Below, in pieces: positions 2,623-5,976 of a stretch of 5,976 nt of DNA (position 1 is its first letter; each line of letters begins with the position of its first letter). The position numbers and the translations under genes were made by a program. Source of the stretch: a virus (lineage: Duplodnaviria > Heunggongvirae > Uroviricota > Caudoviricetes); IMG/VR virus record IMGVR_UViG_2713896787_000006. The stretch is one strand, 5' to 3'. The notes under the pieces are model-generated. The model made no database searches and was not told the origin of the DNA. It worked only from the letters and a program-made list of their open reading frames with translations.

Positions 2623-3236
2623 ATATAACTGTACACATCCAGATTATATTTGTGGTCTGTTAAGAACAGGCCGCAAATACATGCCGAAGCTTCCAGTGCA
2701 GCGGCTCTGTTACTGAATAACCATGTAGCAACATTCCAGCGTTTTTCTGCATCCCAGTCTTTATCAAGGCCTGATACCATGAAGAAACCGTTAGTGTTGC
2801 CATCAAATAATTCTGTTTCCAAATTTTTAAGCAATGCCTGATGGACTCTTGCCAGGTATTCCGCCGGAATTTCGCCACGAATTCTGATGAGATTGTCATA
2901 AACAAACATGTTCCCCGCATATGGCGATTTTTCTTTCTTGTTTTTTAAACCAGCATCATGAGCAAACTGATCAATTTCTTCTTCCGTTGGTTTCGTATTG
3001 ATGTTTTGCGCTGTCGTTTCTGCAATTTTATTTGCCACACTCTCTGAGTCGTGTTTATTTATAGACGCACAGAAATACAATCCGGTAAACGCATCGCGCA
3101 CATTACGAGCCATATTATCAGTGTCTTTTTTCGTTACCGATTCCAATTCAAGTTCGTTCAGACGATGACGAAGTGTGTGTGCTGCAATCTCCTGGATTGA
3201 AGGAGGTAAATCTTTAAATTCCATCGTCAACCTCAT
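2586..3236 (-). CDS. Hypothetical protein, 216 aa, second gene of the PL-proximal pair
   Basis: Track ORF with ATG at 3236-3234 overlapping the upstream TGA (TGATG, one-nucleotide overlap, translational coupling). Diverse protein-like composition. No family recognised by eye. Confidence 0.75.
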   Translation of the reverse strand: MRLTMEFKDLPPSIQEIAAHTLRHRLNELELESVTKKDTDNMARNVRDAFTGLYFCASINKHDSESVANKIAETTAQNINTKPTEEEIDQFAHDAGLKNKKEKSPYAGNMFVYDNLIRIRGEIPAEYLARVHQALLKNLETELFDGNTNGFFMVSGLDKDWDAEKRWNVATWLFSNRAAALEASACICGLFLTDHKYNLDVYSYIYAEHGPLWIDW

Positions 3237-3653: not shown

Positions 3654-4073
3654 TTATGATGCGTTTTGTGCTTTCTTTTTACGGATTTCTTCGTAGATCA
3701 TATTGTAATACTGTTTTTTCTCTTCAAGAGTTTTTAATAAGTTATCCGCTTCACTTTCTGGCAGTTCGTCTAAGAGATCTAAAAAAATACGTTGTCGTGG
3801 CGTTAGAACCCTTGTTTCATAATTGGAGGCTGTGTTCGTTGATGATGAAACGATACCATCCATCCATCCCCGGGGTAACCCAAAGGACTCTTCTATAATC
3901 TCCACCATATCATCAGCGATCCGTTTTTTTCCTTTTTTCCCCTCTGGGTACAACATTCTTGATACATAAGAAGGCTCGCGACCGATCTTTCTGGCCACGT
4001 TAACCGCTTTACCATCGCATTTCTCATCACGAATTTTGATGAGTTGTTGTCGTCTAAATTCATATTTGTCCAT
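3654..4073 (-). CDS. Prophage repressor-like HTH DNA-binding protein (139 aa), CI-like position, too short for a LexA/S24 autocleavage domain
   Basis: ATG at 4073-4071 (MDKYEFRRQQLIKIRDE...). Probable HTH around GKAVNVARKIGREPSYVSRML. Divergent from the Cro-like gene, with operators at both ends. The track's TTG start at 4115 adds an implausible Cys-rich extension. Positional analogue of RacR/CI; I do not recognise the sequence itself. Confidence 0.75.
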   Translation of the reverse strand: MDKYEFRRQQLIKIRDEKCDGKAVNVARKIGREPSYVSRMLYPEGKKGKKRIADDMVEIIEESFGLPRGWMDGIVSSSTNTASNYETRVLTPRQRIFLDLLDELPESEADNLLKTLEEKKQYYNMIYEEIRKKKAQNAS

Positions 4074-4079
4074 AGGTAA

Positions 4080-4148
4080 ATAATAGATGCGATTACCGCA
4101 AGGTAAACAACCCAAGGGTATTGACTTTTGTTTACCTGTGGGTATTCT
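4080..4148. promoter_or_regulatory. Divergent immunity control region: three operator-like TACC-N4-GGTA sites (4094-4105, 4109-4120 imperfect, 4133-4144), PR-like promoter, and a possible PRM-like promoter for leaderless repressor mRNA
   Basis: PR: -35 TTGACT (4121-4126), 16-nt spacer, -10 TATTCT (4143-4148); site 4133-4144 overlaps the spacer and -10, site 4109-4120 abuts the -35. This mirrors PL. Minus strand: TATTAT at 4085-4080 lies 6 nt upstream of the repressor ATG, with a weak -35. SD AAGGAG at 4162-4167 precedes the Cro-like ATG at 4173. Confidence 0.5.
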
Positions 4149-4172: not shown

Positions 4173-4454
4173 ATGGAAGAATTAAGAATATTTCTCAATT
4201 CTCTTTCGTCAGATGAACAGCGTATGTTTGCATGTGAGTGTGGTACTAGCATCGGTTATCTAAGAAAGGCATTGAGTAAAGGTCAAATGTTAGGGGCATC
4301 GTTATGTGTCCTTATTGAGCGAGCCAGTAATGGTGAAGTTACACGTCAGCAACTAAGGCCTTTTGATTGGATGAATATTTGGCCCGAGCTGGAAGATACC
4401 AAAACGTTAACACAACCACTTACTAGGAGCTTGATTCATGAAAATCAAGCATGA
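4173..4454 (+). CDS. ydaS: Cro-like small HTH regulator, YdaS-family-like (93 aa)
   Basis: Strong SD AAGGAG with 5-nt spacer; first gene rightward of the operators. Translation contains FACECGTSIGYLRKALSKG ... LCVLIERASNGEVTRQQLRPFDW, matching my recollection of the YdaS/Cro-like signature (IERA-x-x-GEV ... LRP-x-DW). Symbol assigned from that recollection and synteny, not from a search. Confidence 0.75.
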   Translation: MEELRIFLNSLSSDEQRMFACECGTSIGYLRKALSKGQMLGASLCVLIERASNGEVTRQQLRPFDWMNIWPELEDTKTLTQPLTRSLIHENQA

Positions 4455-4863
4455 ACACATCCGCATGGCGATGAATGCCTGGGCGCGTCCTGATGGCGAA
4501 AAAGTTCCAGCAGCTGGAATAACCCAGGCTTATTTTGAGTTGGGTATGACGTTTCCTGAACTGTATGACGACAGCCATCCGGAAGCCCTGGCTCGCAATA
4601 CCCAGAAAATTTTCCGCTGGGTAGAGAAAGACACCCCTGATGCAGTTGAAAAAATTCAGGCGTTGTTACCAGCGATCGAAAAGGCAATGCCACCTTTGCT
4701 GGTGGCCAGAATGCGCAGCCACAGTTCAGCTTATTTTCGGGAGCTGGTGGAGACGCGGGAGCGACTGGTGAGAGACGCTGATGATTTTGTCGCAGTGGCA
4801 ATCGCCGGTTTCAATCAGATGAACCGTGGTGGCCCGGCAGGAAATGCTGTGGCAGTTCATTGA
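4438..4863 (+). CDS. ydaT: YdaT-family protein (141 aa), CII-like position downstream of the Cro-like gene
   Basis: Starts MKIKHEHI..., contains ...QKIFRWVEKDTPDAVEKIQALLPAIEKA... and ends ...AVH, consistent with my recollection of Rac YdaT. AGGAG 8 nt upstream; overlaps the ydaS-like stop by 17 nt. Confidence 0.8.
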   Translation: MKIKHEHIRMAMNAWARPDGEKVPAAGITQAYFELGMTFPELYDDSHPEALARNTQKIFRWVEKDTPDAVEKIQALLPAIEKAMPPLLVARMRSHSSAYFRELVETRERLVRDADDFVAVAIAGFNQMNRGGPAGNAVAVH

Positions 4864-4934
4864 CTGACAATAGCCATATCGAATCGCTTCCGGCAACTCG
4901 TGAGTAAAAAGATTCGGTATCAGAAGAGGTGAGT

Positions 4935-5976
4935 ATGGCTAACGCCTGGCTCAGATTATGGCATGACATGCCAAATGACCCTAAGTGGCGAACAATTGCC
5001 AGGGTGTCAGGGCAGCCAATTGCAACAGTGATGGCAGTGTATATCCACCTCCTGGTGAGCGCGTCACGAAATGTCACGCGAGGTCACATTGATGTCACGA
5101 CAGAAGATTTGGCAAGTGCGCTCGACGTGACAGAAGAGGTAATTGATTCAATTTTGCAGACGATGCAGGGGCGGGTACTTGATGGTGATTTAATCACTGG
5201 ATGGGAAAAACGCCAGGTGCTGAAAGAGGACAACGGCAATATTTCGCAAACCGCAAAATCTCCGGCAGAGCGCAAGAGGGCGCAGCGAGAGAGGGAAAGA
5301 AAGCGGGAACAAAATGGCGATTGTCACGGCGCGTCACGAAATGTCACGCACATGTCACGACGAGTCACGACAGATAAAGATACAGATAAAGATACAGATC
5401 AAGAAGATCAAAACACTATGGTCCATGGCGTAAAAAACGCCACGAACCAGGCAGGGGATGTTCAGACCGTCAATCCTGGTCAGCCAGCAGGCACGACACC
5501 GGAAGCCGATTCAGCGTATGCGCTGAAAGCCGATTCGGGCGCTGTGCAGCAGGTGATGACCGCAAGGCAGGAGCAATCACACCAACTTCAGCAGCCTGAA
5601 GCCGATTCCGCCATTCAGCGGGAAGCCGATCGGGTAGTCCCGGAAAACACCGGGCAGCCTGTGGGACGAGTGGATTATCCGGATGTGTTCGAACAGGTCT
5701 GGCGGGAATACCCGTTGCGTGCTGGGGCAAACCCGAAGAAATCCGCTTTCAGTGCCTGGAAGGCCAGATTACGCGAGGGGGTGCCACCAGAGGCCATACT
5801 GGATGGTGTGAGGCGTTACGCAAGATACCTGGCGGCTACCGGGAAAACGGGAACGGAATTTGTTCAGCGAGCGACGACGTTTTTTGGGCCGGACCGGAAT
5901 TTTGAAAACCCCTGGTTGCTCCCGGTAAGCGGCACGAACAACCAGCGTTGTGTGAATCATATTTCTGAACCGGATA
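4935..5976 (+). CDS. Partial CDS (3' end beyond window): phage replication initiator (O-like), ori iterons embedded, C-terminal region resembling the conserved phage replication-protein C-terminus (FEQVWREYP...KKSAFSAWKARL)
   Basis: ATG at 4935 with SD GAGGTGA; stop-free frame to the window end (347 codons: MANAWLRLWHDMPNDPKWRTIARVSGQPIATVMAVYIHLL...). Absent from the track because it has no in-window stop. All antisense track ORFs here are shorter and junk-like. Confidence 0.8.
   Translation, partial: MANAWLRLWHDMPNDPKWRTIARVSGQPIATVMAVYIHLLVSASRNVTRGHIDVTTEDLASALDVTEEVIDSILQTMQGRVLDGDLITGWEKRQVLKEDNGNISQTAKSPAERKRAQRERERKREQNGDCHGASRNVTHMSRRVTTDKDTDKDTDQEDQNTMVHGVKNATNQAGDVQTVNPGQPAGTTPEADSAYALKADSGAVQQVMTARQEQSHQLQQPEADSAIQREADRVVPENTGQPVGRVDYPDVFEQVWREYPLRAGANPKKSAFSAWKARLREGVPPEAILDGVRRYARYLAATGKTGTEFVQRATTFFGPDRNFENPWLLPVSGTNNQRCVNHISEPD
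5059..5100 (+). repeat. Iteron cluster 1: four (T)GTCACG repeats at 5063, 5073, 5083 (GTCACA) and 5094, 10-11 bp apart, plus an inverted copy CGTGAC at 5126-5131
   Basis: Direct inspection; a 21-bp block GCGCGTCACGAAATGTCACGC (5059-5079) is identical to 5329-5349. Confidence 0.55.
5321..5405 (+). repeat. Iteron cluster 2 (five GTCACG repeats at 5323, 5333, 5343, 5354, 5364) followed by three tandem 12-bp A-rich repeats ACAGATAAAGAT (5370-5405); candidate replication origin
   Basis: Direct inspection; repeats in helical phase (10-11 bp); resembles the lambda arrangement of iterons plus an AT-rich region inside gene O. The repeats encode ASRNVT... and TDKDTDKDTDQED in the protein. Confidence 0.5.

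Follow-up and report, generated by a model that had tools for sequence, protein, structure and literature searches.

Where does replication of a lambdoid prophage start, and why would the gene for its replication initiator carry two separate arrays of the same short repeat? These questions are raised by a 5,976-nucleotide stretch of DNA (IMG/VR record IMGVR_UViG_2713896787_000006; referred to here as the window), which represents the immunity and early region of an Escherichia coli prophage of the lambdoid (Rac/Qin-like) type. The replication initiator gene of this prophage (rep) contains an upstream array (array 1) and a downstream array (array 2) of the hexamer GTCACG, the second of which is followed by an AT-rich tract (Table 1). 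On the evidence presented below, we consider it likely that the window holds a Rac/Qin-like immunity and replication region in which the phage origin is embedded in the initiator gene, as it is in phages lambda and SPP1. Sequence comparisons show array 1 to be a DNA element under selection, belonging to this probable origin within the gene, rather than a scar left by recombination.

Two phased GTCACG arrays and an AT-rich tract within rep

The hexamer GTCACG occurs 11 times in the window (2.46 expected; 0 of 200 shuffles reached 11), and nine of these copies lie in rep. A previous reading of this DNA, made from its sequence alone (the sequence-only reading), had described clusters of four and five such repeats at 10- to 11-bp spacing, about 260 bp apart and sharing an identical 21-bp block. 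We confirmed the spacing, the separation (260 bp between array starts), the identity of the block at both sites (GCGCGTCACGAAATGTCACGC; two units plus the spacer), and the location of all of these elements inside the rep open reading frame (ORF). The count of five exact units held for array 2, and that of four had to be amended for array 1, in which three units are exact and one is a GTCACA variant. An additional, inverted unit lies at nucleotide (nt) 192 of the gene and is found at the same place in many GTCACG-type homologues.

Because the 10-bp phasing moves the reading frame by one per unit, the hexamer is translated in each of the three frames (giving S-R, V-T, and G-H). The arrays are DNA repeats, not peptide repeats. 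Among 72 near-identical viral contigs, array positions were almost invariant, with single units missing in two contigs. A scan of the complete phage Evi genome (40 kb), the rep region of which is 99% identical to the window, revealed no GTCACG clusters other than arrays 1 and 2. Given that this genome contained no third cluster (i.e., neither an SPP1 oriR-like site nor an operator), autoregulation at a promoter-operator and an SPP1-like distant second origin are both unlikely.

Three tandem A-rich 12-mers had been noted after array 2. Two copies of ACAGATAAAGAT proved to be exact, and the third has diverged (2.9 copies at 5370-5404 according to Tandem Repeats Finder [TRF]). The most AT-rich 40-bp stretch of rep is located here (5374-5413; 75% AT versus a gene mean of 46%). 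The tract starts 2 bp past the last unit of array 2 (i.e., 8 nt after the first base of that unit), and in all GTCAC-type loci of the homologue set described below, AGATAA lies exactly 8 nt from the start of the last unit. The residues that this motif encodes are D-K/D-T in most lineages, Q-I-R in L026, L027, and L031, and R-E-D in L046 and L047. The fixed offset and the several reading frames thus point to a DNA-level role for the tract; these comparisons give the role moderate support, and unwinding is the obvious candidate. The number of GATAMA hexamers ranged from three to eight among the 72 viral contigs. The resemblance to a lambda origin within the initiator gene, which the sequence-only reading had remarked on, was borne out: phased repeats are followed, at a fixed 2 bp, by the AT-richest stretch, in the linker-coding part of the gene.

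Other candidate sites fared less well. The DnaA-box-like site proposed just upstream of array 1 is indistinguishable from chance: ATATCCACC (5041..5049, + strand) matches TTATCCACA with two mismatches, matches with two or fewer mismatches numbered 18 in the window versus 17.5 expected, and the codons of the site show no synonymous conservation in homologues. With regard to a site for integration host factor (IHF) between the arrays, no WATCAANNNNTTR match was present anywhere in the window. Searches for internal promoters and terminators gave chance-level matches only.

The sequence in and after the AT-rich tract has several further features. Two GATC (Dam) sites, 9 bp apart, lie at its 3' end (5397-5400 and 5406-5409); GATC is rarer than expected in the whole window (13 versus 22 expected), and AGATCT closes the tract in several homologues as well. 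Right after the (GATAAA)n tract, many homologues (L004, L006, L008, L016, L019, L027, L031, L036, and others) carry C runs (CCCCC/CCCCCC), sometimes as a small palindrome (CCCCC..GGGGG); the window gene has none. An imperfect palindrome directly after the tract in the window (5419-5449; TGGTCCATGGCG ... CGCCACGAACCA) recalls the one to the right of lambda ori. It was rejected as a lambda-like feature of the family, the inverted repeats found there in homologues being no stronger than those in control segments. Farther on, AAGCCGAT occurs four times on the + strand (5503, 5527, 5599, and 5623; spacing, 24, 72, and 24) in the part of the gene encoding the disordered linker ("PEADSA"), and these copies sit in a 36-nt imperfect duplication (5499-5534/5595-5630). 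E. coli length variants of the Rep protein (302 to 374 amino acids [aa]) have deletions bounded within this stretch, and it may be either filler prone to slippage or an additional DNA element.

Conservation and co-switching of the two arrays

Scanning one genome per species with an alignment of the N-terminal domain (N-domain) of Rep yielded 55 loci (50 to 99% identity), including 48 full-length genes. The hosts were enterobacteria, Serratia, Rahnella, Pseudomonas, Aquitalea, Chromobacterium, Bordetella, Castellaniella, Variovorax, Janthinobacterium, Sphingobium (sphingomonads), and others. A k-mer count revealed the same layout in almost every gene; namely, the top 6- to 7-mer formed 10-bp-phased groups at gene nt ~129 to 165 and nt ~355 to 450, with a run of AGATAA/AGATAC hexamers after the second group. 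The spacing of units within arrays was 10 bp (131 cases), 11 bp (34 cases), or 20 to 21 bp (10 cases) across the family, and six units were present in array 1 of L003. The sequence-only reading had called a second repeat set this far upstream atypical. It is instead the family norm, since a shared hexamer that is repeated in both regions was detected in 38 of the 48 full-length genes (p ≤ 0.003 in a codon-shuffle test). The comparison with related replication modules suggested by that reading clearly found the repeats to be present in homologues, rather than absent from them.

The core motif depends on the lineage: a large group has GTCACG, a second group has (C)GAACG(C), and L027, L029, L031, L032, and L042 have GTAACG. 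Within each gene, the core of array 1 is the same as that of array 2. On a neighbor-joining (NJ) tree of the N-domain, which is a rough tree and was built with the loop columns left out, the motif types were not monophyletic. TAACG was placed beside L026 (L027/L031), inside the GTCAC clade (L029), and twice inside the GAACG clade (L032 and L042), and GTCAC reappeared within the GAACG clade (L047). These placements indicate that the motif type changed several times independently, and each switch hit all units of both arrays. The switches correspond to a handful of events, not to 38 independent ones, and all of them point one way.

Synonymous constraint on array 1

Synonymous sites were analyzed in 21 GTCACG-type genes (median, 68% nucleotide identity over the first 330 nt). 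The entropy at fourfold-degenerate third positions of conserved residues was 1.2 to 1.96 bits outside the hexamers and 0 to 0.55 bits inside them (hexamer versus other synonymous sites, Mann-Whitney p = 8e-6). Inside the hexamers, the per-codon values were 0 (V47, T48, G50, and V54), 0.28 (S44 and T55), and 0.55 bits (A43), while that of R49, the spacer codon between two hexamers, was 1.76 bits. In the inverted unit, V65 likewise had an entropy of 0, and codon 65 was GTG in all 18 loci that have V there. The 10-bp phasing of array 1 was maintained across 61 to 98% nucleotide identity.

The frozen synonymous sites of the hexamers and their reading in three frames show that array 1 is under DNA-level selection. 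Judging from these patterns, protein conservation alone cannot yield a constraint restricted to the hexamers, and gene conversion acting on whole blocks would have affected the spacers as well. Of the explanations that the sequence-only reading had offered for the upstream cluster, an auxiliary initiator-binding site is probably correct. Recombination between replication modules in the past, as the source of array 1, was rejected in view of its family-wide conservation, the purifying selection at the DNA level, and the co-switching of its motif with that of the downstream array.

Domain structure of Rep and location of the arrays

Rep matches PHROG 3729 "replication initiation protein" (2.8e-257). 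In the near-identical prophage of E. coli O111:H8 (L001), it is 356 aa long and is annotated as "phage replisome organizer" (an NCBI name). The protein is modular: the N-domain (aa 1 to ~125) is connected through a long and variable linker to a C-terminal domain (C-domain) that is conserved, and many relatives share just one of these domains. In an AlphaFold2 model (mean predicted local distance difference test [pLDDT], 55), the C-domain had values of >90, residues 44 to 52 had values of <50, and residues 128 to 244 were disordered. The modeled N-domain is composed of a helix (residues 29 to 45), an unstructured segment (46 to 55), two helices (56 to 63 and 67 to 77), and a hairpin (DSSP strand residues 82-83 and 86-87), which suggests a winged-helix-like order. 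A weak HTH_Crp_2 match (residues 39 to 79) fits this order, as does a match to PF09681 (Phage_rep_org_N) over profile positions 1 to 119 of 121 (16.5 bits versus a cutoff of 23.3; E = 0.0085). PF09681 was matched at E ≤ 0.01 in 2 of 25 homologues. The C-domain has no Pfam match in the query, and many relatives sharing it carry a precomputed PF17948 (DnaT-like) match. Its comparison with the PDB gave weak, marginal matches to DnaT (E, 0.02 to 0.07; residues 333 to 356), and the protein also matches PHROG 1701 "DnaD-like helicase loader" (1.6e-62).

Array 1 encodes the predicted loop ASRNVTRGHIDVT (codons 43 to 55), which precedes the helix-turn-helix of the N-domain. This loop is an indel hotspot, homologue insertions occurring at exactly that place in alignments. 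Even where the repeats are missing, R49 and G50 hardly vary between lineages; thus, the loop is doubly constrained. Array 2 (codons ~130 to 145) and the AT-rich tract fall within the predicted disordered linker (residues 128 to 244), and array 1 is outside it.

The N-domain, both arrays, and the AT-rich tract were found joined to several unrelated C-terminal regions (L002 to L055), and the C-domain of the window was also found with other N-domains (e.g., P0044 and P0057 to P0070). The exchange boundary is apparently located just after the AT-rich tract.

Proposed mechanism and alternative explanations

We infer that the initiator is the protein that binds the repeats, that unwinding takes place in the AT-rich tract, and that the two arrays cooperate. 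In the proposed mechanism, N-domain monomers would bind the 6-bp core GTCACG, one per helical turn. Array 2 (five units, 5323-5369) would abut the site of duplex opening (i.e., the (GATAMA)n tract, 5370-5413), and the C-terminal DnaT/DnaD-like domain would recruit host DnaB and the DnaC-like loader, which is the product of the gene that follows. A second, co-evolving set would be provided by array 1 (four units and an inverted one, 5059-5131), written in permissive-loop codons of the DNA-binding domain. Acting in cis with array 2, through initiator-initiator contacts that bridge ~200 to 320 bp, it would give rise to a larger and more stable origin complex and would represent the auxiliary or enhancer half of a bipartite origin.

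Several points weigh against this proposal. The searchable literature gave no binding or replication data for this initiator family. The model of the N-domain is of low confidence (pLDDT, 45 to 69), and a Foldseek comparison of the model with the PDB gave no match at E ≤ 0.001. Among the homologues, L039 and L052 have a clear array 2 without an array 1, array 2 is weak at best in L025, L033, and L038, and L041/L044 and L043/L053 have neither array. The loci share ancestry, such that counts (e.g., 38 of 48) overstate the number of independent events. Moreover, the inter-array distance (192 to 319 bp) has no conserved helical phase (Rayleigh p ~0.44; 20 distinct distances), and this result, together with the missing IHF site, leaves a rigid, phase-dependent loop unsupported. 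Given that some lineages keep array 2 without array 1, the latter is dispensable in at least some relatives. The comparisons suggest that array 2 and the AT-rich tract are the more basic element, with array 1 as a partner that is usually present but not indispensable.

The role of array 1 can be conceived in other ways. According to a stricter form of the bipartite origin, which we regard as possible though doubtful, array 1 would be an obligatory half: the initiator would have to occupy sites embedded in the code for its DNA-binding domain, and connect them with the linker array, for the AT-rich tract to open. If this were true, the DNA-binding domain, its specificity, and both arrays would be one inseparable, co-evolving cassette, and this would explain the exchange of the N-domain plus arrays as a unit onto different C-domains across Proteobacteria. 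A regulatory role, which is a serious alternative even if we judge it improbable, would have array 1 bind the initiator with a negative or autoregulatory effect. As a roadblock, 130 to 200 nt into the gene, to RNA polymerase elongating from the early promoter, it would limit the expression of rep, the loader, and downstream early genes; by handcuffing with array 2, for which P1 incA and F incC provide precedents, it would limit re-initiation. The selection and covariation evidence fits such a role equally well, and so do the lack of an AT-rich tract belonging to array 1, its dispensability in some lineages keeping array 2, and the lack of a conserved inter-array helical phase. Since array 1 overlaps no promoter-like site beyond chance, regulation would be exerted by roadblock or pairing and not by promoter occlusion. 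A phage origin of the lytic phase, however, has no obvious need for copy-number limitation, and the units of array 1 share the orientation and 10-bp phasing of array 2, as in one cooperative assembly.

It is very improbable that array 1 is a functionless passenger, in which gene conversion or slippage with array 2 and protein-level conservation of the loop (R-G pair) maintain the similarity of the arrays by concerted evolution. Although such a history could have produced the identical 21-bp block in both arrays, the variable repeat numbers (six units in L003; three to eight copies of the tract hexamer in near-identical contigs), the lineages without array 1, and the conservation of R49 and G50 even without repeats, it leaves much unexplained: the constraint is on the hexamer cores (0 bits flanking R49) and not on the spacers (1.76 bits at R49), the spacers differ between the arrays, unlike the outcome of block conversion, the 10-bp phasing of array 1 is kept across 61 to 98% nucleotide identity, the conserved inverted unit (gene nt 192) has no array-2 counterpart, and several independent switches changed all units of both arrays. 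Even less credit is due to the recognition of the repeats by another factor (a host or phage protein) or to a peptide repeat selected at the protein level. The encoded peptides are indeed similar (ASRNVT in both arrays), but a peptide repeat is incompatible with the three reading frames (S-R, V-T, and G-H). As for another factor, the motif type tracks the N-domain lineage across hosts of different proteobacterial classes, which argues against a host factor, and the N-domain travels together with both arrays when joined to different C-domains.

Comparison with known origins

In function and placement, the candidate origin is closest to the lambda origin in gene O and to SPP1 oriL in gene 38. 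The origin of lambda and Shiga toxin (Stx) phages lies in the middle of gene O and consists of iterons and an AT-rich tract (PMC7466680). As in lambda, the candidate origin lies centrally within the initiator gene, where the linker that joins an N-terminal DNA-binding domain to a C-terminal domain for loader recruitment is encoded; it consists of direct repeats followed by an AT-rich tract; and it occupies the same genomic slot, after cro/cII-like genes and before a helicase-loader gene. Array 2 has three characteristics of a lambda-type gene-embedded origin, namely, at least three phased repeats in the gene, an adjacent AT-rich tract, and a linker location. There are also differences from lambda. 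Rep has no detectable sequence relation to O and no O-family Pfam/NCBIfam match; where phage records carry the label "DNA replication protein O", as some do, this is only a name given by the depositors. The repeats are 6-bp cores occurring once per helical turn, whereas lambda iterons are 19 bp long and palindromic, and the loader is DnaC-like, not P-like. Finally, the second array, 260 bp upstream in the code of the DNA-binding domain, has no described lambda counterpart.

In SPP1, oriL (AB boxes and a DNA-unwinding element [DUE]) is embedded in gene 38, and the initiator, G38P, binds two discrete regions, oriL and oriR (PMC5737612). The features shared with this system are an initiator without an AAA+ domain, origin repeats and a DUE within its own gene, a weak full-length Phage_rep_org_N match of Rep, and the "phage replisome organizer" name. 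The systems differ in that the Phage_rep_org_N match is sub-threshold (16.5 versus 23.3 bits) and that the second site is 260 bp off in the same gene, whereas SPP1 oriR is in a distant genome region. The origins of phage-inducible chromosomal islands (PICIs), such as Staphylococcus aureus pathogenicity islands (SaPIs), have two sets of short (~6-bp) iterons that flank an AT-rich region and an element-specific initiator (PMC6092414). Short repeats of ~6 bp in two sets are common to both systems. However, the PICI sets flank the AT-rich melting region and are outside coding sequence, while the AT-rich tract is downstream of array 2 here and the inter-array DNA is ordinary coding sequence (~46% AT, the gene mean). 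Because the AT-rich tract is not between the arrays, a PICI/SaPI-type origin was rejected.

Auxiliary initiator-binding arrays are present in P1 (incA/incC), F (incB/incC), R6K, and P4 (ori plus crr), in which they act in cis by enhancement or handcuffing. Array 1 resembles those of the iteron plasmids and P4 in that the same repeats recur in it, apart from the minimal melting origin, and covariation and synonymous constraint identify it as a separate array under selection. Whereas the plasmid and P4 arrays are intergenic or flank rep, array 1 is overprinted on the codons of the initiator's DNA-binding domain; to our knowledge, this is not the case for any of the auxiliary arrays of P1, F, R6K, and P4.

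Origins embedded in initiator genes are well known from lambda, P22, and SPP1. Less familiar is a second site array that, in a widespread proteobacterial family, is superimposed on the code for a loop in the DNA-binding domain of the initiator itself; full-text literature searches found no description of the origin of this initiator family, and a prior mention may nonetheless exist. The loop offers a clean natural example of dual coding, in which a protein segment and a putative protein-binding DNA share the same bases, and the motif types (GTCACG, GTAACG, and GAACG) offer ready-made initiator/site specificity classes for studying the evolution of origin specificity. The arrays also indicate where replication probably starts in a prophage type that ~45% of complete E. 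coli genomes carry, including O111 and O157 enterohemorrhagic E. coli (EHEC). Caution is required in codon-level recoding of such genes, which would destroy the cis-acting sites.

Prophage context and related loci

Bases 4800 to 5976 of the window are 99.6% identical to the O111:H8 prophage and 99% identical to phage Evi (L138), and related DNA was detected in 2,442 of 5,426 complete E. coli genomes. The neighboring genes are listed with the elements of the candidate origin in Table 1.

Table 1. Coordinates of the genes and repeat elements discussed in the text
Feature	Position	Strand	Description
DicA/RacR-like repressor	3654-4115	-	
YdaS/Cro-like gene	4173-4454		
YdaT/cII-like gene	4438-4863		
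rep, replication initiator gene ("phage replisome organizer")	4935..5976	+	ATG at 4935; continues past the window end
Array 1	5059..5099	+	Exact GTCACG at 5063, 5073, and 5094; variant GTCACA at 5083; 10- to 11-bp phasing
Inverted unit	5126..5131	-	CGTGAC on the + strand; codons D-V-T; gene nt 192
Array 2	5323..5369	+	Exact GTCACG at 5323, 5333, 5343, 5354, and 5364; 10- to 11-bp spacing; putative main array for initiator binding
21-bp block GCGCGTCACGAAATGTCACGC	5059-5079 = 5329-5349	+	Two units plus spacer; identical at both sites
AT-rich (GATAAA/GATACA)n = (GATAMA)n tract	5370..5413	+	ACAGATAAAGAT x2.9, then CAAGAAGATCAAAA; candidate DNA-unwinding element

In the O111:H8 prophage, rep is followed by a gene for a DnaC-like helicase loader/ATPase (PHROG 50). 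In phage Evi (L138, 21077-22368), the genes after rep are annotated as "LygF" and "Transcriptional regulator" rather than as a DnaC-like ATPase; near-identical rep genes are thereby associated with different downstream partners. The window contains the DicF antisense RNA (1986-2037, - strand; Rfam RF00039; 76.7 bits; E = 3.4e-16), and dicB is present in the matching part of the O111:H8 prophage (L001:2818-3006). Together, DicF and dicB confirm that the prophage is Qin/Rac-like. At positions 1201 to 1289 of the window, ORFs are broken by 89 consecutive N (masked or unknown bases).

The same gene slot is occupied by ydaU in the Rac prophage of E. coli K-12 (L137). Identity of rep with ydaU was rejected, the N-domain of YdaU belonging to a different family (DUF1376). 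The layout of ydaU is similar: GATGTTCAA-like repeats with 33-bp spacing lie in the middle part of the gene (2972-3063) and are followed by (ATAAAG)x3.3 (3101-3120) and two copies of ATCCCCCCC (3131-3151), and two more GATGTTCAA-like copies (2761 and 2848) lie upstream in the N-domain code. These repeats are possibly the sequence basis of Rac oriJ.

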